From Catajapyx aquilonaris (taxonomy: Eukaryota): a DNA stretch of 20,000 nucleotides. Of the stretch, positions 3,700 through 20,000 are shown in pieces. The stretch lies in the NCBI GenBank assembly GCA_000934665.2, contig KZ538540.1, positions 56,621-76,620 on the forward strand, given 5' to 3'. The stretch's first letter is position 1, and the number at the start of each line of letters is the position of its first letter. Position numbers and translations under genes: made by a program. The notes under the pieces were generated by a model, which did not search any database, was not told the origin of the DNA, and was given only the letters and a program-made list of their open reading frames with translations.

Positions 3700-4755
3700 T
3701 GGCTCACACTTGCCGAGAACGTAACCTTTACACCAGCCTAGATCTCATGCACCTAGGTCGTCGCCCTGTACACTTGCATTGGCCGCGGCAGGTAAACTGG
3801 CATGATTTAGTTCCTTACGTCTGATAAGCAAGAGCAGCAAACCCATAAAGAGGAATATAATATATCTGGATATGAGTTGAAAAACTGACAGCGAGTTCAA
3901 ATATGGCTCCCGGCCAGCGACAGAGTTACCAGCTGTTACCCGTGGTGTTACCAGATCGGCCGCGGTGTCAATATGTTTACTTCTAAAAATTAGTAACTAA
4001 TCCTTCACCCGGTTCCTCTCCCTTGCGTTGATGCCATCTTTATCTTTCCCCTTCTTTCCTTCTCAGTTTTCGCCGCCCCCAGCTCCCCTGGCGTCCTTCC
4101 CTTGAACCAGGTGCCCAACTTTCGCTCTTTCAGTACACCCGACGTCGCGGCGCTCAGTCCCACCGTCTTTCTACACAGGGCAGCAAACTCTCCCATTCGA
4201 TCCCCTTCCCTCCCCCCTCTGGAGTAGGACGACTTTCCCCCTCCCTCCACCTCTTCCTACCCTCCCTTCACCCCCCTCCTCCTCCCCCCTCTCCTTCCTA
4301 CCCTCCCTTCACCCTCCCCCTATTTCCCCAGTTTTCGCTCGTCTCTCGCTCTCTTCTCGCTCCCCCGTATGTGACATGGCGTCCTATGTGTTCTGAACCC
4401 CATCCCCCCCTCCCCTCCTCTCCTTCTGCCCTCACCTCCTCTCTCTCACTCTCCGCCACCACTACCCCATCATCTCCCGCCCTACATTCTATATTTCGAC
4501 CCCTCTCCACCCCCTGTCCCGTCCACCCCCTCCGTCAGACAACCCCAGTGCTCCTCGGCCCCTTCTTCCCGCACCGCCCCCGAATACCACCTTCGCCCCT
4601 GGATCCATGAGCCGATCAGGGGGATAGAGAGAGAGAAAGAGAGGGAGGGAGAGAGAGAGAGAGTCAAAAGGGGGGCATACGCGAAACCAGAGGGAATTGA
4701 CTCCAGGGGGTTGGTTTCACGGCCGAAAACTTGACCCTAAGACAGGCCTGCATTG
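3700..4755 (+). promoter_or_regulatory. CpG-enriched promoter / 5' UTR region of WAC
   Basis: Clear rise in CpG relative to the CpG-poor flanks, directly upstream of the WAC ATG. Inr-like TCAGTT 4063-4068; YY1-like GCCATCTT 4033-4040 and ACATGGCG 4374-4381; C/T-rich tract ~4005-4600; GA-rich tract ~4626-4663. Confidence 0.6.
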
Positions 4756-4796
4756 ATGGTAATGCATGCAAGGAAACTCCAAAGGATCAGCGATGG
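4756..4796 (+). CDS. WAC: WAC coding exon 1
   Basis: [13 protein letters not shown](G); donor GG|gtacgg; too short for the ORF track. Confidence 0.92.
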
Positions 4797-6927
4797 GTAC
4801 GGATGAAAAGGCCATACTTGCCTTGGGTTAATGGTTGGAGGGAGGGAGGGGGTTGCAATAGATCAGGCAAAGGTTTCTAACTTTTCTCTCCTTCTTTTGC
4901 AGGATCGGAGTTTTCAGGGCTGATGTCCGGACCCGAGGAGACCCAGGGTTGGAACCGCATTCTCACTCACTCACCTTCTCATCACTTTTGCTTGAACAGG
5001 GTCAATGACTGCACAACACACTCTCTCAAACCCTGCACATTCTGTAGCTAATGTTTACGTCCTGGTCTGGAATACCAGGCTGGCGCAACATGTGCAGAGC
5101 AATGGTTGGGGTTCAGACCCTGGCAGTATGTTTTGGTTTCGTGCCAAGTTAATGGCATATTCCAGCCGCATTGAAACCTTACACGTTCATTACACTATCT
5201 TTATTGACTCGTAAGGAACAACATTAGTAGGCTAACCACTTATCTCAATTATTGGAGAGTTGAAATGTATAGTTACTTGGTTTTAAAGTTGTGCTGGTCG
5301 TTATGAATAGCAACACGTGTGACTTGATAAGTAGTTATTTTACACATGTTTGAGCGAAAGGTGAAATCTTAGGTTAGAATCGTTAGATGAATGTAACTGA
5401 GTGTCATGCTGACATTGCCAGGAAAGCAGCAACATAGAGCTTAAGAATTAGGGAAGAATATTTAAGAGACATATGGAACAAGCCTAGTCTTCATATTTCT
5501 TGCTGAAAGATCATAATGAAGAGTAATTGGGTTACATTGTGACACTTGAAAAAGCTAAGCCACTGAAGGCAGTGCTTACAAATATGGGGTTTGGTTGTGT
5601 TTATGCAGTAAAAGCCAATAAGCCGGAGAGAATAATACAAATATACGACCTGCATTTACCTGGTTATTCAGTTGGCCTCAGTTATTTTGTAGATTTCATG
5701 TAACACTTCATGGCTCCATTTCAGGTATTTCGAGAAGCATCAGGCCCATCCATACCAGGTTAGTCATTCAACTCCACCAGTGTCAGATGGGAGCACTATT
5801 GCATGTGGTGAAAACATTCTTGACACTAATATTTTTCAGAATTCCAAGTACTCGGGTTCAAAAGGCTACCCAGGGGAGCGTTACAACCACGATCAGCAGA
5901 CTGTCCGCGAGTCCCCAAATGGTAACTCACTCCGGACAGACAGCCCGGATTCCAGGTCACAGAGCCCCAGGGATCAGAGGGGCAGTGCCAACTACCACTC
6001 GAAGCAGAGTTACATGCAGAAACTACGGGAGAAGGATGACAGAGGGGACTACAAGTCTAGGGACAAACATTCAGGTCAGAGTTTATAGTTGGTACGTTGA
6101 TAGGCCGCCAACCCTAACTTGCCATTGACGTCATCGTTTTGTTTCCCAACTAGTCAGCGTAAGTATGCTGGACACACCCCTGGAACCCTTCACTATTCAA
6201 GTTTTCCATGGAGATGCCCTCATGCAACCATTACTCGCATTGTTGCATGAGGGCATCTCCATGGAAAACTTGAAAAGTGGAGGGTACTAGGAGTTGGGAA
6301 ACAAAACGATGACGTCAATGGCAAGTTAGGGTTGGCTTCCTATAGTTCTTGCCATATGTAATGTATTTAGCCTTAGAACAGTACATCATGAAAAACAAGG
6401 AGTGTCAACAATATCAACTGTATTACTTTCAATGAAACCATGCAGACAGTGCTATTCTAAGGTCTGACTGCACCAGAGCCATAAGACCCATTTTGACCAG
6501 ACATCAATGAGAAGCAAAAATGGGTCTTCTGGCCAAGAAAAAGTTTTAGGGCCCTGGTGCAAGCAGATTTCAGTCTGAATACATAATTGTGTTATTAACC
6601 ACAATCTGCCTTGCCTTTTTTTTCTTGAGAATGTTAGGTGTAAGGGGAGGTTTTGCGAATTTGAAATCACAATGTAACCAAGTGAAACATTCAGGAATAC
6701 TTCCTGAAACACTTAATTGTTATGCCGAAGAGGACATAGATGGAGGTGGAAAGTGCTGCAAGAATAATTATCAACTTTAATATATGCGAAAAGATTTTCC
6801 TCAGATGACCCATGGTTATTGGACTTATCCAGGCACAGGCTCAATATCAGACTTTTATTTAATATCCCAATTAGGCAGATATTATAGTAGAGAAAGATGA
6901 TTTGTACATTTTTTCACATATCTGATG

Positions 6928-6960
<33 letters not shown>

Positions 6961-9900
6961 TTATTTATTTATTGATACCCCATTGGGAGAATCGGCGCTC
7001 CATTAGAGGGGTGGAGTACCACCATTGGATGGGGCCAAGGATAGGGAGGGAAGGAAGCGGCTGTGGCCTATTATATGGAAGCAACCCTGGAATTATCCTG
7101 GGGGGACCGTGGAAAACCACAGAAAACCACAGTCAGGGTTGCCGGCCCGGGGAGTCGAACCCAGGACCTCCCAATTAGCAGTTGGGCTCCATAACCACCA
7201 CACCAACTTGCTTTGGTCTATGTGATGAATAATTAGGCAACATTATGCCGAGATAAGCCTGGAATCTTTGGTTATAGCTGCATTTTGATGAAGCTCACTT
7301 GCCAGATTGTTTCTGTTTATGTGGATAAAAGATGGGTCCTTTCCAGGATCATTTCTGGATTCAGTTACAATAATCTTTATTCGGGTGTTCTTTTGATGAA
7401 AATGTGAAACTCAATTTTGTGCCTAATTAGTTCCCCAACCAAGAAATCTTGATTTGAAGAGCTCGATTTGCCAATTTTTCTAACTTCATTGGGCCCCTGA
7501 AAGAGATGATGGCTATGATTATTATCTCCATTCCCTCAATTGGGAATTCTGCATTTGATACAGTGCATTGGAGGGGAGTCCATAATGCTAAAAGTGTTTT
7601 CTTTACTTCATATCATAAAATATTAATACACTGTAAGAGATGTCACATAACTGCGAAAATGGTCTTACAATATCGAGATGAGGATGGGCAGAATCTGTTG
7701 GTGAGGTTTTAAAAATATGAAGTGGGATGTCTCAGCCAAGTTATGGAAATTACAGGGGGTGTGGAGTTTTTAGTAGACTGCTGCTCCAGCCACCTGTGTG
7801 CATGTCAACAGTCTGGACCTTATAGACTATTGTTTGACACATACCTTTTTGCCAAAAAAAATTAAAACTGATTGAATGAAATTCATGGAAATAAGTATAA
7901 CAAGGTGTTGGATAAATATTGAAAAAGTATTATGTGAAAATTCCAACATAGCTTTACTTGACATGTTATTCAATGGTATTGGAGGGAATTGTCAAATCCT
8001 AAACTACTAGTATTCCTGTGAGCTCTTCCATCACTCAGCTGAATAATCCCAGGAAATTTGCTGACATATGAGGGATGCAATTAGGAAGTTCATGCAGGAT
8101 TACATTTACGTACACCTTCATATGGTGTTTCCTGTTTTTGTGAGATAGATTTGAAAATAAGCAAAGTTTTCTTTTTGTGGGCCGGTCTCAAAATTCTAAA
8201 CCATGGGGCGGGCTGGTAGCAACTTGGTAGCAACTTAAAAGCCATGGCACAGCGCAAGTGACTGCACAACAAACCTACCAAGAAGTGGATAAAGCTAAGA
8301 GCTTACTCGTATGACGTATTGTATTTGATAAATTAAATGTCAATCACATTAACCTTGTAGACTTCACACTTTTGCAGACAGGCCGGTTGAAAGACGTCTG
8401 CGGGCCTGGTGCCTGCTGCCCACCCCTGCCTTAGTATCATGTGAAGTCATTGTGAAGTAAAGTTGATATTAAAAATTATTCAGTGACTATCTGTAAAGAC
8501 TACACAATTCTGCAGAAACATTTGAATTGAAATTTTTGCATGGTCCTAGAGGTGATATACAGCAGATATATGTTAAGCAAGGACAATATGGAATGGTGCA
8601 ATTTTGCTATGTGTAAGTCCCATTGCATTTTTGTGCTGCCCAGAAATAATGGTAGTCTTGCCACATTGTGGTATTAATTTTGCTATACATAGCAATAATT
8701 TTTGGGAACATGATTGATTTATGACAGGGTTTTTTAAAGTACTGCTCTTTGTTTTCCTTGTACACTTGTTAATTTGTAGAAATATTGGTTACATATGTCC
8801 AATAATAGATTATCACTTCCAGATAGCACAAGATCTCCAAAAGACCGTCGCCTTCGAGAACACCGGGATTCTGAGCAGAGGACCAATCACGATAAGACAA
8901 GTGGCGAGGTCAGTCTCTTTAAGTTTATCACTTTACACTACGTGAAGGTTATATTTTAACTATGTCGTTTGCCCCAGGAGAAGAGGGAGGAGAGGGAAAG
9001 GGAGAGGGAGAGGGTGCTGCGAGTGGGTGACTGGTCAGAGCACATCAGTTCCTCGGGGAAGAAGTACTACTACAACTGCAAGACGGAAGTGTCCCAGTGG
9101 GAAAAGCCAAGGGAATGGGTGGAATGGGAGAGGGGTGGGGGGAGCAGTGGGGCAGGAAGGTCAGGTCAACCACAGCAGGTCAAAGACAGAGGAGAGAGCA
9201 GCAGAGACAGGGACTATACATCTGCAAGGGGATCTTGTAAGTATAGCATATTAACACATGAAAATGTGTGTTAAATCCCTTGCACTAACTTGACATGTAC
9301 ATAATAAAATTTTATATTAGGGCCTACATATTTTCCCAACTCTTGATTCTGGAGAACAGAATTTGGAAACTGGACAGGATTAAATGGAAATAGAATTAAA
9401 TAATAGTGATGCGTGTCACTGGTCACGAGATTTTTTAAATTCCATTTTTTTTACTAAAATAAAATGCACTTGGATGGCATATCAGTAATGTTTCTCGCCC
9501 TTCACATGGATGGGAAATATCAGAAAATATTACCCTACTAAAGCACAACAATGTGGAAAATGTTTCAAAATATTGGCAGTTTGTGTGGAGTCAAATGCAA
9601 GACCAGGCCAACAAAATGCGTCTCACACAAAGTTTGCAACCAGTCTGTTGACATGCCTACCACAGCATTATGGAACCCCCTATGGCCTATGTGCTTCGTT
9701 CATCTCCTCCACCCACGTGGGGTTTTCGATTTGGCACTCGTGCCCTACCAAAGCTGTGTGGTGCATCCTAGAAGAAACCTCCCAAACCCCCAATTCAAAT
9801 TCAAACCGTCAAACCACCAATTGCGCCCAATGTAAACCACTAGCACCTCGACTCTTGGCCCGTCCATCTTGTAATCACTTCGCCACACTTGGCGCTTATT

Positions 9901-11898
9901 TTCCTGAACACAGTAATGACCCCCTGTATTATAAAGCCCCTCTCTGAGGATATTAGAGGAGGAGGAGGAGGGCGAGGGTGAGATGTAGGATAGAAAAGAT
10001 CTTGCACTTCCCGACGTCGTAGCGGGTCAGGTGATGGCTCGTCAGAAAGCCCTCGTCAACAGTTGGGAAGCGAAGAATTCTCGAAATTGGAAATTGCCCT
10101 GCCGTTTTCCAGCTAAGGCCAAGGAATAATAATTTTGCACTTTCGACCTTGGCCTGCTGGTCATACAGCATCGATCTACCTCTGGACGAGCACCTCTATC
10201 ACGCCACCCACCCAACTCCCCTCCGCCACCCATCCCGTCGGCCGGCCACCCCGCCCCCTGGCCAAGAATGTCAAGAAGCCATACCATCAATTACACCTCA
10301 TCTCAAAGCATTCCTAGCAATTTTAAGACATGCCTTTGTTTGACGATTTATTAATTTTTGCATCACGTGCTTAAGCCTCTTGGAACGAGAACAAAGCTAT
10401 TTTCTCTTGAGTTTTGTATAGGGAGTTGGCAGCAATGCCTATCCACATTCTTTATCCCATCATTGTCACATTTCTATGAACAAAAGAAACCTTTGTGTTG
10501 AAAACAACACAATTGTTGTATAATCATGATGACCTGCAAGGCTTCATTAACAATGTCTATATTAGCAAACAGTTCAGTGGCACATACCTGCTTGAGGAAT
10601 CTTGTAATTGGTAGGAGAATGCATTCGTGTCCTTTGTAATGTTGCAGCCATCTTGAAAGCAAGATGGTGACCTGATCAGGCTCTTCCCATACAGCAGGAC
10701 TAGATTATTACCAATCCACCCTTGTTTGTAGGGTATTCTCAGACTCATCCAGTGATTTGGAAAATGAGCAAAGTGTCTTTGTGATTTGTTGTTGCTGCTG
10801 TTTAATATGAAAGCTATTCAGCAAGGTACAGTATTGAGGAAAAAAGTGAAATTAATGGCATTGTCATGTGATCTGTTGATTATGACGTCACGATAGTGGG
10901 CCGTATGAATGTTGAACTGGGAGTGTGTCATGACTCATGACATGTTAAATTTATTTTTATAAACCTGAGGCAAGCACTTGGTGGAATGCAAGTTCAGATC
11001 TGAATCTGTAAATTTACTTAAAACTAATGCATCAAACTTGTTCTCCTCTATCAACCAATTAAGAACTGGGTAATGACTCTGTCAGTCTGGAGTTGCGATA
11101 GTTGGTTTAGGGGGTTTAGGCATGTTCCCTACGCTGACCTGGTCTCATAGGCCAGGTGTGTGCTGTGTTGAGCCCTGAGGGCTTCACCTGGAGAAAAAAT
11201 GGGGGGGAAATTTAGGGGTAGTGTAGCAAGGGTCGAACCCTTCTCTACATCGGGTGCGATTGGTAAAAACCTTTTCTCCATCAACCACTCCTCTCACAAT
11301 GACTCCCTCGCCTTCCCTCTCCCCTATTGGGCCATGCCTATTCCTTTTATTGTCATGTGAGGACCACATGGTGTATGGAGGAACTTTCCATTCCTACATT
11401 TACACCCTGCGCCCAAGTCAGTCATGTGTGACAAGTTTTGTGCGCAGCTAGCACAGCAAACTTGGCGAACACAACTAGGCATTGCCTGCAATTGCCTGTC
11501 TGGCAGAGCCATAAAAGAAGCCTACACGCAATGCACAAAGTCACTCTCAAGAATGTTGCAATTATGCAGTGAACATGTCTTAGGTGTCTCTTCACAATTT
11601 TCACTATACACATGGATGAAAACTTTCATCCAGGTGGTGTGGAGGGTGCTCCAATTGAATTTTTCCCTAGATGTAACTAACTAACTACATTTTTTTGTAG
11701 CACAAGAGAAACATTCCACATTCAGACCGTCTTCATCATTGCCGTCGTCGTCGTCATCTTCCCGTGACCAGAAGCCCAGTTCGAGGCTGGTTGATGCTCA
11801 TCGGCAATCATCTGGAAGCCGAGATGAAGGGGAGCATAGAGAAAAAAGGAAACATAGCGATGGTAGGCATGCGTACTACGTTGTACTAGGTTGTACGT

Positions 11899-11952
<54 letters not shown>

Positions 11953-14900
11953 AAAACTTGAGTTTGCAGCTTGCCAGACACTGCACTGAATCCATGTGAA
12001 TGAATTGATGTGTAGGCATCTATGCTGTTGCAGACTTGTACTGAACATGTATGGACTTTTTCTTGTTATTATTCCCTAAACAATACAGTATAATATCTAT
12101 TTACAAAGAATTTACATTACATGAGGTATTACACGTAATCTAGAGATGATTTAAAGTGTATGGGAGTGTTCAATTCATTCATTCATTCAATCATTCATTC
12201 ACTTCTTTATGGCCTTGTCCCAAGCATGGGGTAGCCAGCCATGATGAGTGTTCAATGGCTGCAATATATGCAAATACAATGCCATTTCATGTAAGGAACT
12301 TGAGCATTCAGATTTTGATATCTGCCAGAGGTCCTAGAATCAATCCCTCAGTTACCGTGGGCCCATTGTACCGGTAATGTTTGCAGTGGTACTGAAATTT
12401 TCTTTTAAAAAATGGTTTAATTATGTTGCACTTTTTCCTTTTCCCATTGATAGAAATGAATGTTACAATTTTCTAATAATTACAAAGCACGGCAAATATT
12501 AGGCTGAATAATCTTGCCGGTGTTAGTATATTCACTATGTGTGGAAAATCTTTTGCAGAATCGGCTGCTAACCATCAGCTCTCAATTTTGCCACGGAGGG
12601 TTTATTACACAGTCTCCCTCTTACCCAGGAAAAGAAGTGCAATATGACTTTTCAGTTTTCAACTTAATTAACTTCTCATTAACTGCACACTTACAAGTTA
12701 GTGAATAACTACCTCTGCTATGGCCTCTGTAACTGTAAGGCAAGCTGCTTACATGTCACCAATGATATGGCCAGAAAAGAAGGCGGAGGTGCAGTGTTGT
12801 CTGCGTTGCATGTGGCTGGGCCAGTGAAGTTCTTCGTGAAATTACATGTAGCACGTCTGGGGGCACTTTTAGACATAACTGTTGGAGTGTGATGTGACAT
12901 GGATGATAACAAAAAAGACAGCTGGACATAATAGGAGTCTTGGCAAATTTGTCTGGCATTGGTGGCACAGGTGGAGATGGCTCCATGCACCTGGATGACC
13001 CGATGACTAGCTTAAATGCAAATGTTGCATGAGTCAGCTGCAGTATTGTGTGATGGTTATGACACAGTCTGCCCACTACATGTACTGCAGTATTCCTGTG
13101 ATTGTTGCTACTGTTACAGAGAGTGAGTGATGTGGACAACTCCAGATGGGTCTGCCTGCTTGCACTGCATTGCATTGGGATAAGCAGGGTGAGGGGAGAT
13201 TATTCAGAGAAAGTGCTTTATTTTCATCACACTCATCACTTCCTGTGATGACTTGGGATGCAGTTACCGAATGGTTTGGGAAGGAGTCTGGAATGCTACT
13301 GTCTGCCATTTTAATACAAGGTCCACATTGAATGTCATCTACTCCCAAAGTTGTTTAGTTGCTTCACAGGACATGTTACTAGGGCACTCCGCAAGGAGAA
13401 GACTCTGCTCATGCCCCAAATGCTGTTTGACTGATCCCATCGGAACAGATGGTGGAGAGCAGATGGTGGAGAGTCAGAGGTCGAGGTAGTGATCCAAGTT
13501 CTGATTTGTAGTCTACGAGATCCAGTCTCGTAGATCCAGTGTACTGAACTCCTTCCCGAATCATCAAAGGCATGATGATTGTGATGAAAATAAAGGACTC
13601 TCTAAATCAGGGTTTATCAACCAGGGTTCCACAAGCAATTGCCACGGGCACCGCGAGAAATCGTGATGAATAGGCTAATCGTATGTAAAAGTATTTTTGA
13701 GTCATTCATTGCTAGGTCTATAGTTTAATCATTTTTATGAGATGTGAGTATCATTTCAAGAGTTCCACAAGGGTAAAAAGGTTGAGAAACGCCTCTCTAA
13801 ATAATCTGCCGTCACCCTGCTTATCCCGATGCAGTGCACTATTACTGTAAACAAGGAGTCCTGCCTGGGGTCATCCACATTACTCACTCTCTGTAAATAG
13901 TGGCAACAATTGCAAGAATTGCAGCACGCACAGTTTTCTGACTGTCATTACTGGCGCATGATAAGGGGGCTCCCATTCCTGCAACATTTGAATTCAGCTA
14001 GTCCTCACGGCAGGGGTGCCAGGTGCATGGAGCCATCTCCGCCCATGCTGTCCACACAGGAAAAATTTGCAAGGGACTAATACGTATGTGCCATGCAGAA
14101 GCGCTTCAAAATCAAGGAGTCCTGTGTGATCCTAACTGATACAGCATTCCTCATCAGACCAAGATGAGGACTGTGACTACATTTTCCTACCTATTGCTGG
14201 CTCCTAAATTGATCCAGAAATTAAAAACTTAATGTTCATCTTTTTAGGTCTACCTTCTTGCATGTACTGTACTTGCAGAATGTCTAGCAGCACTCGTAAT
14301 TTTTAATGAGTATCCCTAGAAAATTGAATTTATTGCTCTGAGATTAAATTAGCTCCATCTAGCTTCTGAAATAAGATTTTTCTAGAGGTTTCAGTGCATG
14401 AATATGAGAATATCCCAATACTAGCCATTTCCAGAGACTCGAGGTGTGTGAATGAGACAAATGTTTGCCTACAGATGAAGTAGACTGTTCTACACTCAGT
14501 CATGTTTGAGAAATTTAGAGAGAGAAAAGATGCTCCTGGCATATGCATAAAGACATGCTCATATTTAAGACTGTCTGATATAGCCACTTCTTCGTGGGCT
14601 TTTATATGCCACCACACTATCAGCAATGCTAGAATATGATTGTGATGATGTTTCACTTTCAAGTTATGCAAAGCAAAATAGTTACATGTGTATAGCAACC
14701 TGCACAAATCTCCTCTAAAGCAAATATTTAACAATAGCTATGAACTAGTTTTATGAGACTTTTGGAAATCTGAAGAAGGGATAGTGAGATTGCTAAAATG
14801 GGCATCATCTGTATGCTTCCAGATTCCCTTGCACAAGACATGGACATCTCTCCTGGTGACAGCACACCAACGTCAGCAGAGAACTGCTACTCCGTTCATC

Positions 14901-17900
14901 CGAATGCTGCGTCTTCATCATCAACCTCTTCCACCTCCTCTTCCTCCTCTAGTTCCTCCACATCCTCTCACCCACTCCCACAGCAGCAGCAGCATCCAGA
15001 CCAATCTAGTGTAGTGGATCTACATCCCTCCTCCTCCTCCTCCATTCCTGCTTCCTCCGCATTGTCCTCCTCCACCACCTCCACCACTACCACGACCACC
15101 ACCTCACTAACATCAGTATTGCTGAAGCAGTCTACATCCACCATGTCCAAGCCTATTGTCAGCAGCAGCACCAGTGGCACTAAGCCTTCCCCATCCCCCT
15201 GCATTGCTCCTCCCCCTCCTCCCCCTATTCCTTCCACTTCCACTTCCTCCTCATCACAATCCACCACCACAACCCCAGTCACTCTGGCCTCCCTTCCACG
15301 ACTCTTGTCGCAGATAACCTCAGCCAAAGGTGAGCAGATTGAGTTTGGTTGATTGTTGTGAAGGTATAAGGTGTTATATTCTGGTGGAACAATAAAGGGC
15401 TAGGGGAAGAGATGCAATAGAAGCTCCATGTTTGCAGCTGATTACTGGTAGGATACACCAACAACTAAACTAGGATGGGAATTTTTTAGGGCCAGTTGCA
15501 CCGGCCTCAGTATAACTTTGAACCTCAGGTATAACAAGAATTGCCATAGCAATCATTGTTGACCTTTTGAGTTCCAGAGGTATATCACTTGCATGAAGAT
15601 TTGTGGGTGCAAGGCCTCTACAAATTTTGGGGAATCAATTTTAATCCAGCTGTCTCTTTCAGTAATTTCTTTGCAGATAGATAACATAACTCTCACAAAT
15701 ATGCTGAGGATTTCTGTAGGATTTAGCTGTCCATTTGTGTTAGGTGGCAACTGAAATATCAAGATACACAGATGCTAATTGTTATGTCTCTGTTACAGGT
15801 CTCCAAACACTGGATAAGACAGAGCTGAGTACCCAGGAGGCCATTCAGACCATACAGCAGGCTATCATGCTGACGAGACAGGCTAGCATGGAACACCATC
15901 ACCAACATCACCAGCACCAGCATCACCACATGCAGCAGCACCATCACGGGATGCAGCCGCTGGCTGTGGACACAGCAAATGGTGGGGGTGGGAGCACCGG
16001 TGGTAGCAGCACAGGAGGTGGTGGTGGAGGAGGTGGGCCTCCTACACCCACCCACTCTGAGGCACAGGATGCTGTCGATGCTAGAAAAGGTTGGATTATC
16101 TTCTTTTTTTATTATCTCTGTTGTGTATTATCTAGGCTACACCAAGAAGCTGGTTTATGACTACTACTTTTTCCCTCAATGCTATTCTGTAACTTTTCTT
16201 AACATTATATATTGATGAAATGCATATTAGTGATTACAAATTGAAGAATTTCTGCCAGTCCTAGAGTTTGATTATACAAGTTCATAATATAATAATAACT
16301 TATACGAGGTGTGATCGAAAAGTTCCCGGACTGTGTTCATAAAAACATTAATATTTACTTTAAGTCCTAATTTCCACTGCCACCTTCAAAGTAGTCACCT
16401 TGGGCACGTATACAACAATTCCAGCGAATTTCCCATTTTTGGAAGCACCAAAAAAAATTTGACCAACAGTAGTGTGTTCAACACCTGCTGCGATTTTGCT
16501 TAGACCTCTTTAGTGGAGTCAAAATGCCTCCTTTTCTGCCCAAATTTCATTTTAGGGAAGAGGTAGAAATCACATGATTCCAGGACAAACGAATATGCAG
16601 GGTGGGGAACAGTGGTCATGTTATTTTTTATCAGGAAGTCCCTGACTACGCGTGAGGTGTGTGCAGGCAGCATTGTCATGGTGCAGCAACCAGTCTATGT
16701 TCTTCCACATCTTCGGCCATTTGAGGCTAAATCGTCTCAAACCATCGCAGTAACACTTGCCGTTGACAGTTTTACCAGGAGGGAGGAACTCCATATGCAC
16801 AATTCCTAAAATGTCAAATAAAATGATCAGCATTGAGTTGATTTTGCCGCGAACTTGGCGTGCCACCTTTGAAGCTGTTAAACCACTCATATGTTAATGC
16901 TTGTCTTACAACTTGCTCATCAAAAGCCTTGTTCAGCATTCGGTTGGTTGCATCCGAAGTTTTGTTGAGCTGGAAGCAAAATTTAATACAAATCTTTTGC
17001 TCCCTAACATCAGCCATTTCGAAAAATCGCAGAAGCACAACAACACGGTGTCAAGAAAACTGCCGAAACTCGGAAACATGTGCACCTATGAAGACGAGAT
17101 TTTTCAGGCTAATAGATGAAAGTACACCTAGCGCCCCCTAACGTCACAAGTTCATAGCTCCACTGGTTTGCGCGGTATATCGACAGTCCGGGAACTTTTT
17201 GATCACACCTCGTATAATAATGGATACCCCGTGATAGACCCCTTGGGCCTCTTAGGGGATCATCTTTTGAATAACCGATTTTAATCATTTGCCTGTAATG
17301 TAATGGATTTTGATAGTGGGAGGAAACGGGAGAACCCCGAGAAAACTGACGCGAACACGGAGAGAACCCATCGAAACTCTATCCACATAAGTATCCTCCG
17401 TCCAACCCGGGGATCGAACTCGGGACCTTAGAGGTGGAAGGCTGCGGCGCTAACCGCTCGGCCACCGTGTCGCTTTTAATAATAACTTATATATAACAGG
17501 GAGCGTGATAATGACCTCTGAAGGTAATATGGGGAGTATAGTAACTACTCCCCATGTTATATTAGCACACTCCCTGTATGTCCTACCTCGAAATGTCCCT
17601 ATCCAACATTGATCAGGACGGTCTGGGCTACAACATATCCCATTTTCAGGCAAATCGAACAGAAGGCCACTGGCCCACACGTTTTGTGCCATGTCTTTTT
17701 GGCATACAGAGTTGCCCCCAAACCTTCTCAAGAGATTCCACCCTAAAATTAGTGCAAAAGATAATTCAGTAGTTTTAAAATAAATAAAAATTGTTCGTTA
17801 ATGCCAATTAGCAGCTGGCGGGCCACTGCACAACTCCCACCCGTCCTCCGCGAGGATGGAGGGGCGCATGCCCAGCGAGGTTTGAACAGCTGTGGAGCGA

Positions 17901-19536
17901 GGCAGGTTTCCATTCGGGTGGGGAGTGTATGTTTGTCTCTGTAACTGGGATGCCTGTCCTGTGACGCATTATTCATGCATACTGGTCTGTTCAGCAGTGC
18001 CAGGGCGATACACATATCGTACTTCTTGTCATTGCAGGAGTGACAAAAAATTGGAGAAAAAAATACGTAGGTATGATACACACTCCTCGCATCTGTTGAG
18101 ACTTTGAAGATTTTAAATCTCCCCATGGTATGGCAAGAGGGTCCCATAAACATAAATGACCTCAGGATCAAGGCTAGACACTACACCATGTTACTCACTA
18201 GATTAGTCACGTGTGGTACCTCAAATGACAATGCAAGCGATTTTTTTGCAGATTCCTGCAAAAACGCGAAAGAACCGCCCGTCTAATTAGGATTAAAGAA
18301 ATGCCGGATAAGTAGTGGGACACTCTGTACATCCTTGGTGGAAGCTTGGGGAGCTATGTCCTCCGTTAAAATCTGTTAATGAGGGCAAAATAGTGCTGAA
18401 GGATTTCTATAAAAGAATGCAACACTCTTGACTTAGATGTGTGTGTGTTACTCCAGAAATGTTCTGTCCTGAACAAGTTCCTCTTACATGCCACATAAGT
18501 GCTGTGCTCTGAAAATAATGTGCCAGAACCAAACACATTGTACTGACAAGATTCTGCTGCAGCCAGGACTGTCATGGGCAGGTTTCACTGCATTGTTTCA
18601 CTGCATTGATTTACTACTAAGGTCCTGTTGCACAGCCTCCTGCCAACATTATCTGGCTGGTAAAGAAGTATGCCATTCAGTTTGACAACATTGCATTGGT
18701 GACAACAGTGGCAGTGCAGTGGTGTAAATAAATAGTTTGTGCTCTGAGGATGTGAGTTTGACCATAGCACTGCACATTGCACAAGGTTGTGACCAGACAA
18801 GCGTTCCTCTGGGTGATTTTATCCTGGGTTGTGGGAGACTGAACAAAAGAGAGTAATGCACACTTTCTACAATGCACAATTGTTTTCCTGATTCATGTGT
18901 GCATTACTGTCCCCTCTTCAGGGATTCCCACTTTGCATTCCATTGCAAGCCCAGAAAAAGATCTGGCACTGGATTGCATGTGCCCTGCTTCCTCCCTGAC
19001 CATTGGGTATTGCCTGGAGGGAAGTTTGTTTGTCCATAGATTGTGTGATCTGCAGTAGTATTCTGCTATCTTGAGTAAAAATGTTCATGTTATGGAGGAT
19101 ACAACCTATTCCCATGCGTAACATTTTTTGTCACTATTTTTTCTTGACAGTGAGCAGCCCAACCAGCAGCATAAGTTCCCTCCAGTCCTTGTCTGCGGCA
19201 GGGGGCTCTTCATTGAATGCCCTGCGACCCCAAGGCCCAATGCTGACGCCCAGTCTGGCCAACTATTTCAGGGAAGACCTCACAGCACATGTCAGGGACT
19301 GGCCTTCAGAACAATTAGAGAAGCAGGTCAGTGTTTCCAAACTCAGACCTCAATTTTGAAAGGAAATTTCATGTACTTCCACTGCTCACCATGTATTTTT
19401 CACTACAGGTCCAGAGACTGAGTGAGGAGGCCCATGCACTGGGCAGTCTGCACTGCACCAAAGTGTCTGCAGAACTCAAGATGGCCAGGTCGCTTGTGCG
19501 GTTAGCAGAGATTCAAGCCACCCTGCAGGAACAAAG
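4756..19536 (+). CDS. WAC: WAC, WW domain-containing adaptor with coiled-coil (Drosophila wacky), 3'-partial; join(4756..4796,5725..5758,5840..6074,8823..8908,8978..9236,11701..11862,14823..15329,15799..16089,19151..19326,19409..>19536)
   Basis: N-terminus [27 protein letters not shown] domain [28 protein letters not shown]-terminal [17 protein letters not shown]...LEKQ and [22 protein letters not shown] coiled coil. 1919 nt across ten GT-AG exons with consistent phases. Confidence 0.96.
4903..4947 (+). CDS. WAC: Candidate 45-nt alternative cassette exon of WAC ([15 protein letters not shown])
   Basis: CTAAC branch site 4877-4881, pure pyrimidine tract, tgcag| acceptor, donor GG|gttgga; frame-preserving phase 2-2 with no stop. 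Confidence 0.55.
5725..5758 (+). CDS. WAC: WAC coding exon 2 (34 nt)
   Basis: tttcag|G TAT TTC GAG AAG CAT CAG GCC CAT CCA TAC CAG|gttagt = [11 protein letters not shown]. Confidence 0.9.
5840..6074 (+). CDS. WAC: WAC coding exon 3
   Basis: ttttcag|[14 protein letters not shown]...SRDKHS; donor G|gtcaga. Confidence 0.88.
6100..6343. mobile_element. Foldback/palindromic MITE
   Basis: Outer arms 6100-6151 / 6292-6343 (52 bp, 2 mismatches); inner arms 6185-6228 / 6242-6285 (44 bp, 2 mismatches); TA at 6101-6102 and 6341-6342. Confidence 0.8.
6931..7218 (-). mobile_element. tRNA-derived SINE, full length
   Basis: Minus strand: A-box-like TGGTGTGGTGG (7195-7205), B-box GGTTCGACTCC (7151-7161), body GGTTTTCTGTGGTTTTCC...AGGCCACAGCCGCTTCCTTCC as in arthropod SINEs, and (TAAA)n tail. 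TSD tatctgatgaat 6919-6930 / tatgtgatgaat 7219-7230. Confidence 0.88.
8161..8428. mobile_element. Eroded hAT-type MITE fragment
   Basis: Right end GCGGGCC...GCTGCCCACCCCTG (reverse complement CAGGGGTGGGCAGC) and GGCCGG subterminal motifs resemble hAT MITE ends; no matching left TIR or TSD found. Confidence 0.4.
8823..8908 (+). CDS. WAC: WAC coding exon 4
   Basis: ttccag|(D)[28 protein letters not shown]|gtcagt; phases fit both neighbours. Confidence 0.85.
8978..9236 (+). CDS. WAC: WAC coding exon 5 (WW domain)
   Basis: ccccag|EKREERE...[32 protein letters not shown]...ARGS; donor T|gtaagt. Confidence 0.95.
9410..10300 (-). pseudogene. Possible degenerate DNA transposon (piggyBac-like) C-terminal relic
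   Basis: CpG-richer block. Minus-strand fragments [18 protein letters not shown] and a frameshifted Cys-rich GCKLC..HFC lie in piggyBac-like order. Boundaries are uncertain. Confidence 0.3.
11701..11862 (+). CDS. WAC: WAC coding exon 6
   Basis: Branch-like ctaac repeats and ttttttgtag|; (S)[12 protein letters not shown]...EKRKHSD; donor G|gtaggc; phase 1-1. Confidence 0.85.
11901..11948 (+). repeat. (GA)24 microsatellite
   Basis: Perfect dinucleotide run 38 nt into WAC intron 6. Confidence 0.97.
11948..12368. mobile_element. TcMar-Tigger non-autonomous element resembling MER2/MER2B, left end missing
   Basis: Collinear strings match the MER2 consensus as I recall it: TGTACTGAACATGTA 12037-12051, TTATTCCCTAAACAATACAGTATAA 12069-12093, GTAATCTAGAGATGATTTAAAGT 12135-12157. 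Degenerate Tigger-type right end followed by TA (12369-12370). Confidence 0.78.
12175..12245 (-). mobile_element. 71-bp 5'-truncated retroposon 3' end (RTE-like) nested in the Tigger element
   Basis: Perfect 11-bp TSD GAGTGTTCAAT 12164-12174 / 12246-12256. Minus strand GCTACCCCATGCTTGGGACAAGGC stem-loop followed by a (TGAA)n tail. Confidence 0.8.
12922..14093. mobile_element. Old element with long (~340 bp) diverged inverted arms
   Basis: Arms ~12922-13266 and ~13546-14093. Example: GGAGATGGCTCCATGCACCTGG 12973-12994 is the perfect reverse complement of 14019-14040; also CTTTATTTTCATCACA / TGTGATGAAAATAAAG. Confidence 0.75.
13608..13794. mobile_element. hAT (Charlie-like) MITE, 187 bp
   Basis: 8-bp TSD CTCTAAAT 13600-13607 / 13795-13802; imperfect TIRs CAGGGTTTATCAACC ... 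GGTTGAGAAACGCCT; interrupts the right arm of the host inverted repeat. Confidence 0.82.
14823..15329 (+). CDS. WAC: WAC coding exon 7 (Ser/Thr/Pro-rich)
   Basis: ttccag|(D)[17 protein letters not shown]...[18 protein letters not shown]; donor G|gtgagc; phase 1-1. Confidence 0.9.
15799..16089 (+). CDS. WAC: WAC coding exon 8 (His/Gln and Gly tracts)
   Basis: ttacag|(G)[27 protein letters not shown]...[18 protein letters not shown]; donor G|gttgga; phase 1-1. Confidence 0.9.
16305..17212 (-). mobile_element. Internally deleted mariner element (~0.9 kb)
   Basis: 30-bp TIRs CGAGGTGTGATCGAAAAGTTCCCGGACTGT / ACAGTCCGGGAACTTTTTGATCACACCTCG (1 mismatch), TA flanks, mariner transposase remnants inside. 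Confidence 0.95.
16367..17017 (-). pseudogene. Mariner transposase pseudogene
   Basis: [20 protein letters not shown]...EWFNSFKGG is joined near 16860 to [16 protein letters not shown]...WLLHHDNA..H...[20 protein letters not shown]...[15 protein letters not shown]. Frameshifts and a stop are present; the WVPHEL linker and first catalytic Asp are missing. Confidence 0.92.
17217..17476 (-). mobile_element. tRNA-derived SINE with V-domain-like body
   Basis: Minus strand: A-box TGGCCGAGCGG (17454-17464), B-box AGTTCGATCCC (17410-17420), body GTTCTCTCCGTGTTCGCGTCAGTTTTCTCGGGGTTCTCCCGTTTCCTCCCAC resembling the V-SINE conserved domain. TSD TAATAATAACTTATA 16290-16304 / 17477-17491. Confidence 0.87.
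17497..17576. mobile_element. 80-bp palindromic mini-MITE
   Basis: CAGGGAGCGTGATAAT 17497-17512 pairs with ATTAGCACACTCCCTG 17561-17576; inner TAATATGGGGAGTA / TACTCCCCATGTTA; TA on the right flank only. Confidence 0.6.
19151..19326 (+). CDS. WAC: WAC coding exon 9
   Basis: ttgacag|(V)[13 protein letters not shown]...[28 protein letters not shown]|gtcagt. Confidence 0.93.
19409..19536 (+). CDS. WAC: WAC coding exon 10 (coiled coil)
   Basis: ctacag|[42 protein letters not shown](R)|gtcagt; terminal exon not seen in the window. Confidence 0.94.
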
Positions 19537-20000
19537 GTCAGTGCTCACTGGATGCAAAAAATTTAGTCTGTAGGATTGGTTTTCAGCTTGGATGCCACAG
19601 TGTCACAATCATGACCACATGCCACTGCATGCCATCTCCTGTGCATAAATGAGCACTTTGTTATTGGGAGTCGAATGAGTCAAAGAAATGCGAGATCATT
19701 ACTTAACCCAGATATGCCTGAAAGATTTTTTGTTTAAATTTTGGTTTTTGTTTGATTTTATTAGTTCATGATAGTCCCCAAAACACAACAAAAATGATAA
19801 AAAAATTTATGGAATGCTAGATTGTACGAAAAGTGCCGTCCCCTATAGGGGACACTCGGCAAATGTAACATCTAGTATGGCTATACTGTATATACAAGGA
19901 AAGCGTAAAAACGTAAGATAGAGGCTGCTGTATTGAAATAAAGATGGAAGTGTTTTTTAAATTCATTGAAAAATATAGAGAAGAAATATTATAGCTAAGA

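Follow-up and report, generated by a model that had tools for sequence, protein, structure and literature searches.

For a DNA transposon, horizontal transfer is the only way into a new lineage, and we know of no source for MER2, Tigger1 and Tigger2, the families that swept through the genomes of early mammals. Transfer of mariner elements between mammals and insects was reportedly described by Oliveira in 2012. MER2, MER2B and TIGGER2 are human Repbase families of the Mariner/Tc1 class (PMC5753468), and MER2, Tigger1 and Tigger2 are given as active around the divergence of the eutherian orders (PMC1914374). A further study places Tigger1 and Tigger2 far apart within pogo and has "Tigger" as a polyphyletic name (PMC7325037). 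A catalogue of the arthropod Tiggers (Diaby et al. 2022; PMC9219625) lists such elements from 155 species of arthropods, and its authors also claim that Tiggers were transferred between Eutheria and arthropods. Examples of the terminal inverted repeats (TIRs) in its Table S1 are CAGTGGGACCTCG... (millipede) and CAGTGGGTCCTCA... (ascidian), all of them with TA/TA duplications, and the catalogued elements are 1.4 to 3.9 kb long, have a TIR at either end and in most cases contain a transposase ORF. The block analyzed here agrees with the catalogue in its candidate TA target site and in the phylum of its host but is a one-ended, non-coding remnant of 339 bp. MER2, MER2B and Tigger2 are likewise of a short non-coding type, and the block resembles them in having one end, putatively of Tigger type, beside a TA, and in a putative likeness of its body. 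It differs from them in that its host is an arthropod and not a eutherian, and in having a single end, a foreign insert of 71 bp and a left segment of 72 nt that may or may not belong to the element.

The window (the whole 20-kb stretch of DNA analyzed here) contains parts of two genes. The part from bp 1 to about 1050 codes for the IBR/RBR end of a ligase of the RNF31/LUBEL type (Pfam IBR), for which the organism-named homologues among the best 120 matches were arthropods, with the exception of Nematostella, at 61 to 77% identity. The second gene is WAC ("wacky"), with a WW domain at ca. 9020 to 9130 (Pfam E value of 1.3e-11), and here every organism-named match among the best 120 was an arthropod. 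No vertebrate appeared among the best 120 matches of either the RNF31 or the WAC search. Seven of these WAC homologues were used in tblastn, and the matches of all seven follow the order of the protein across the region, to the left and to the right of the block, falling within 4756-4818, 5726-6073, 8822-9280, 15278-15346, 15792-16088, 19195-19377 and 19370-19585. From these collinear matches, it follows that the block lies in intronic DNA of WAC, between the exon with the WW domain and the next supported exon. The exons nearest to the block are as follows.

9017-9280, plus strand: upstream WAC exon with the WW domain (Pfam WW, E value of 1.3e-11; WAC homologues)
11701-11862, plus strand: putative Ser-rich exon, 85 bp upstream of the block (open frame; AG at 11699-11700 and GT at 11863-11864)
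15278-15346, plus strand: downstream WAC exon segment supported by homologues (tblastn, two of the seven)

The Ser-rich frame was aligned by none of the seven WAC homologues and, judging from its open frame and flanking dinucleotides, may be a further exon of the gene. The initial annotation had located the block in an intron of an invertebrate, and both points were borne out, the intron by the exons that all seven homologues place around it and the host by the arthropods that make up the best named matches to the two genes. We also built a tree of the RNF31 fragment with 43 rows, consisting of the window and 42 sequences hand-picked from the 120 hits to span orders. In this tree, the window sits basal to the arthropods without a definite place, and for this reason, we describe the host as apparently arthropod-like and name no subgroup.

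The block itself (11948-12368) is present as described and AT-rich, with a GC content of 0.37 when the insert is left out. Without positions 12175-12256, i.e., the insert plus one copy of its flanking repeat, it amounts to 339 bp. Its parts and immediate neighbors are listed below.

11900-11948, no strand: (AG)24.5 microsatellite adjoining the left edge of the block (repeat listing)
11948-12019, minus strand: left 72 nt, without an inverted repeat of the right end (local alignment)
12020-12163, minus strand: internal non-coding body, AT-rich (sequence; Pfam scan empty)
12164-12174, no strand: left 11-bp target-site duplication of the insert, GAGTGTTCAAT (sequence)
12175-12245, minus strand: nested insert of 71 bp (ATTC repeat at 12173-12201, direct repeats, minus-strand tail)
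12246-12256, no strand: right 11-bp target-site duplication of the insert, GAGTGTTCAAT (sequence)
12257-12368, minus strand: terminal part of the element, starting with CAATGGGCCCACGG... on the minus strand, the candidate Tigger-type end
12369-12370, no strand: TA dinucleotide next to the end of the element, a candidate for one copy of a TA target-site duplication (sequence)

The longest stop-free frame in the block has only 73 amino acids and crosses the nested insert. None of five block frames scored above threshold in a Pfam scan, and among these five frames, a DDE/D transposase with a CENP-B-like DNA-binding domain was not found, as is to be expected of a non-autonomous derivative. The right edge reads ...GGGCCCATTG up to position 12368 and is followed directly by the TA. 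When the terminal 79 nt were aligned locally with the region 11800-12120, the scores were 16 in direct and 14 in inverted orientation, compared with shuffle means of ca. 15 and a 95th percentile of 19, so that there is no second TIR in this region. The missing inverted partner fits a truncated remnant and does not indicate an intact element. With the other end of the block missing, the TA at 12369-12370 is a candidate only. The left 72 nt may be a diverged tail of the element or plain intron. Only two CpGs were found in the 339 bp (observed/expected ratio of 0.17, versus 0.38 for the whole window), and no further copy of the block occurs within the 20-kb window.

The nested insert is bounded by the exact 11-bp direct repeat GAGTGTTCAAT, and, read on the minus strand, it finishes in a run of (TGAA/GAAT)n. 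Its appearance is that of a retroposon truncated at the 5' end, with a tail of the microsatellite type. The features of a non-LTR retroposon insertion, i.e., target-site duplication, 3' tail and 5' truncation, are all found in it, and no further copy of the 71 bp is present in the 20-kb window. Having its own target-site duplication, the insert argues for residence of the block in the present genome.

The assignment of the right end is a different matter. We derived a 13-nt motif from published Tigger TIRs and allowed two mismatches. The block end, CAATGGGCCCACG, matches this motif with two mismatches. In the 20-kb window, there were two matches versus 0.88 expected, and at least two were found in 43 of 200 shuffles; by these counts, the assignment of the end to Tigger is within chance on the computed evidence. 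The arthropod catalogue (PMC9219625) has ends of the type CAGTGGG.CCTCG, to be compared with CAATGGGCCCACG here, and again the match is within chance. Four motifs of 8 to 9 nt from the end were looked for in the supplement of the same paper, and none was present there. Thus, of the initial description of a non-coding block of ca. 350 bp with a Tigger-type end and a TA, the block, its non-coding state and the TA stand, while the end does not exceed chance; the retroposon insertion nested in the block, claimed in the same description, is upheld by the exact 11-bp duplication and the (TGAA/GAAT)n tail.

What points beyond the end is the body of the block. Between the right end and ca. 12020, its minus strand seems to be collinear with the eutherian (human) MER2/Tigger2 consensus, with several long strings that look identical. 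The part at 12257-12368 presumably corresponds, in collinear order, to the 5' terminus of MER2/Tigger2, and many of the sites at which the two differ seem to be CpGs in the consensus. To the left of ca. 12020, where the initial annotation had proposed a MER2B-like segment, we see no convincing likeness. Not independent of the resemblance drawn in the initial annotation, this one is a strong lead only. The anatomy of the block, its place in the gene, the nested insertion and the loss of CpGs are observed; that the element is a Tigger, is kin to MER2 and was horizontally transferred is inferred.

Exact strings of 19 to 23 nt from the block had no match in genome contigs and viral contigs, collections with almost no animal DNA. 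Among metagenome contigs, exact block strings led to three loci, which by blastn had only a 19- to 21-nt seed in common with the block. Translated pattern scans of the block gave 362 and 58 matches, none of which was confirmed, and the protein collection offered no candidate for the 73-amino-acid frame. Six Rfam matches up to an E value of 10 were all far under the gathering scores and unrelated, so no Rfam family was found for the block. In the full-text literature, block strings did not occur apart from a chance match to a primer. As animal DNA is almost absent from the sequence collections, these empty searches are weak evidence. We also looked in open-access full text for reports of invertebrates with non-coding elements like MER2 and found none, only general surveys of Tigger and pogo elements.

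Our preferred reading, to which we give a probability of roughly 0.55, is that the block is what is left, inert and decayed, of a non-autonomous cut-and-paste DNA transposon of the pogo/Tigger type, lying antisense in the WAC intron, and that this element likely belongs to the Tigger2 lineage of MER2, which would then have been horizontally transferred. The first part of this reading, i.e., the remnant, is much safer than the transfer. Horizontal transfer, either direct or from a common third source, would have brought the Tigger2 lineage both into the present arthropod lineage and into the early placentals. An element of this lineage would have integrated at a TA in what is now the intron. 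Without a transposase and with a single recognizable end, it would never have been mobile there or would be so no longer. Its CpGs would have been lost in a CpG-depleted, probably methylated gene body. A 5'-truncated retroposon would then have struck the element, leaving the 11-bp target-site duplication, and the other end would have been lost or obscured beside the (AG)n microsatellite. At present, the remnant would be transcribed, removed with the intron by splicing and functionless.

The transfer itself is plausible but unproven. Should the apparent likeness be borne out, the Tigger2 lineage would have been transferred horizontally in some form, since vertical descent cannot explain neutral DNA that is still alignable between an arthropod and placental mammals. 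The published cross-phylum transfers, of Tiggers between Eutheria and arthropods (as claimed in PMC9219625) and of mariner elements between mammals and insects, are claims of the same kind, drawn from a nucleotide likeness of a Tc1/mariner/pogo element between mammals and invertebrates. However, those claims rest on consensuses, copy numbers and distances between host genes, whereas here there is one decayed copy.

Alternatively, the block may be a remnant of a native arthropod MITE of the Tigger/pogo type, its likeness to MER2 being only of family level (the terminal motif and a few short strings) and with no transfer related to mammals. Tiggers are widespread in arthropods and, in the catalogue (PMC9219625), have TIRs of the CAGT...CCTCG type and TA duplications; besides, the sole similarity that was computed is at the level of the motif and within chance, the identity of the long strings being putative. 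We nevertheless hold a native origin to be unlikely, as the apparent likeness spans more than 200 nt of non-coding body beyond the end. Less likely still is that there is no transposon here at all, and that an ordinary AT-rich intron with a retroposon insertion happens to have a "Tigger end" by chance. The match to the TIR motif is indeed within chance and has no second TIR to accompany it, the block occurs just once in the window, and no relative turned up in any collection searched. On the other side, the TA is placed exactly at the proposed end, and two readings point to the same collinear likeness to MER2, but these come from a shared source and are no test of it. Altogether, we consider it improbable that no transposon is present.

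It should also be considered that a mammalian contaminant fragment with an old MER2 copy might have been joined into an arthropod contig by the assembler. The block seems to have the look of a typical aged, CpG-decayed genomic copy of MER2, and its left edge is a microsatellite, where an assembler misjoin could have taken place. The right edge is non-repetitive, however, and two chimeric joints would be needed within ca. 420 bp, inside a gene with collinear exons on both sides. Young mammalian retroposons have poly(A) tails, and the tail of the nested insert is of the microsatellite type, which is not known from them. It is mostly these two joints in a collinear gene and the type of the tail that make an assembly artefact very improbable to us. 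The CpG depletion also speaks against it, being common to the whole window (0.38). As to the reads, 95% of the words sampled over a 1.1-kb stretch that covers exon, block and intron were present in each of the four listed runs, although the four come from one sample, possibly the one from which the assembly was made, and are not independent, which leaves some room for an error of the assembly.

Returning to the remnant of a horizontally transferred Tigger2 relative, a wider implication would be that the present arthropod lineage has a relative of MER2/Tigger2 at the nucleotide level and that this lineage, or a partner with which it exchanged DNA, was part of the chain of transfers that seeded the eutherians at about the time of their ordinal radiation. 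Compared with the two human consensuses, the present copy might then be closer to the element from which both MER2 and MER2B derive. We put this forward tentatively, as something possible but on the whole doubtful. If confirmed, the locus would be of some help in tracing where the Tigger2/MER2 elements that invaded the eutherians came from, and it would provide a concrete donor or vector lineage for study together with a second calibration of the age of the invasion. Transfer of Tiggers between Eutheria and arthropods has already been claimed in PMC9219625, so the present case, if confirmed, would be another such event. If the likeness is of family level only, the block amounts to yet another defunct piece of a transposon within an intron.

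Some further features of the window deserve mention. The RNF31/LUBEL-like gene (1-1050) ends within ca. 3 kb of the start of WAC (4756 onward), on the same strand, and an open frame includes a stretch of poly-Glu, encoded by a (GAG)25 repeat at 1369-1445. The region 4000-4700, which shortly precedes the match to the WAC start codon at 4756, is a GC-rich (up to 0.57) polypyrimidine/CT-rich tract strongly skewed to C over G, with 41-nt repeats and (AG)19; it is probably the promoter or 5' UTR region of the gene. An imperfect CAC/CAG repeat at 15894-15947 corresponds to a His/Gln-rich run in a WAC exon. The Pfam match to SelP_N at the same position is weak and spurious, a product of this run.

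There are also several other repeats in the window. Directly after the WAC exon segment 5726-6073, there is a palindromic MITE-like unit of ca. 244 bp (6100-6343), in which the two outer arms, each of 52 nt, are 96% complementary and the two inner ones, each of 56 nt, 89%. The intron that harbors the block has, in addition, nested inverted repeats over ca. 1.1 kb (12943-14070), with four arm pairs of 31 to 52 nt that are 76 to 90% complementary; the whole structure may be a foldback-type element. An internally deleted mariner of the Mos1 type, 918 bp long, is found on the minus strand at 16300-17217, within a WAC intron. Its TIRs of 35 nt (16300-16334 and 17183-17217) are 97% complementary, and its broken minus-strand frames match Pfam Transposase_1 and HTH_48. 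The observed/expected CpG ratio, 0.38 overall, ranges from 0.18 to 0.67 among bins of 2 kb and peaks over the bin with the mariner (16001-18000), a profile consistent with methylation of the gene body and a more recent arrival of the insert.
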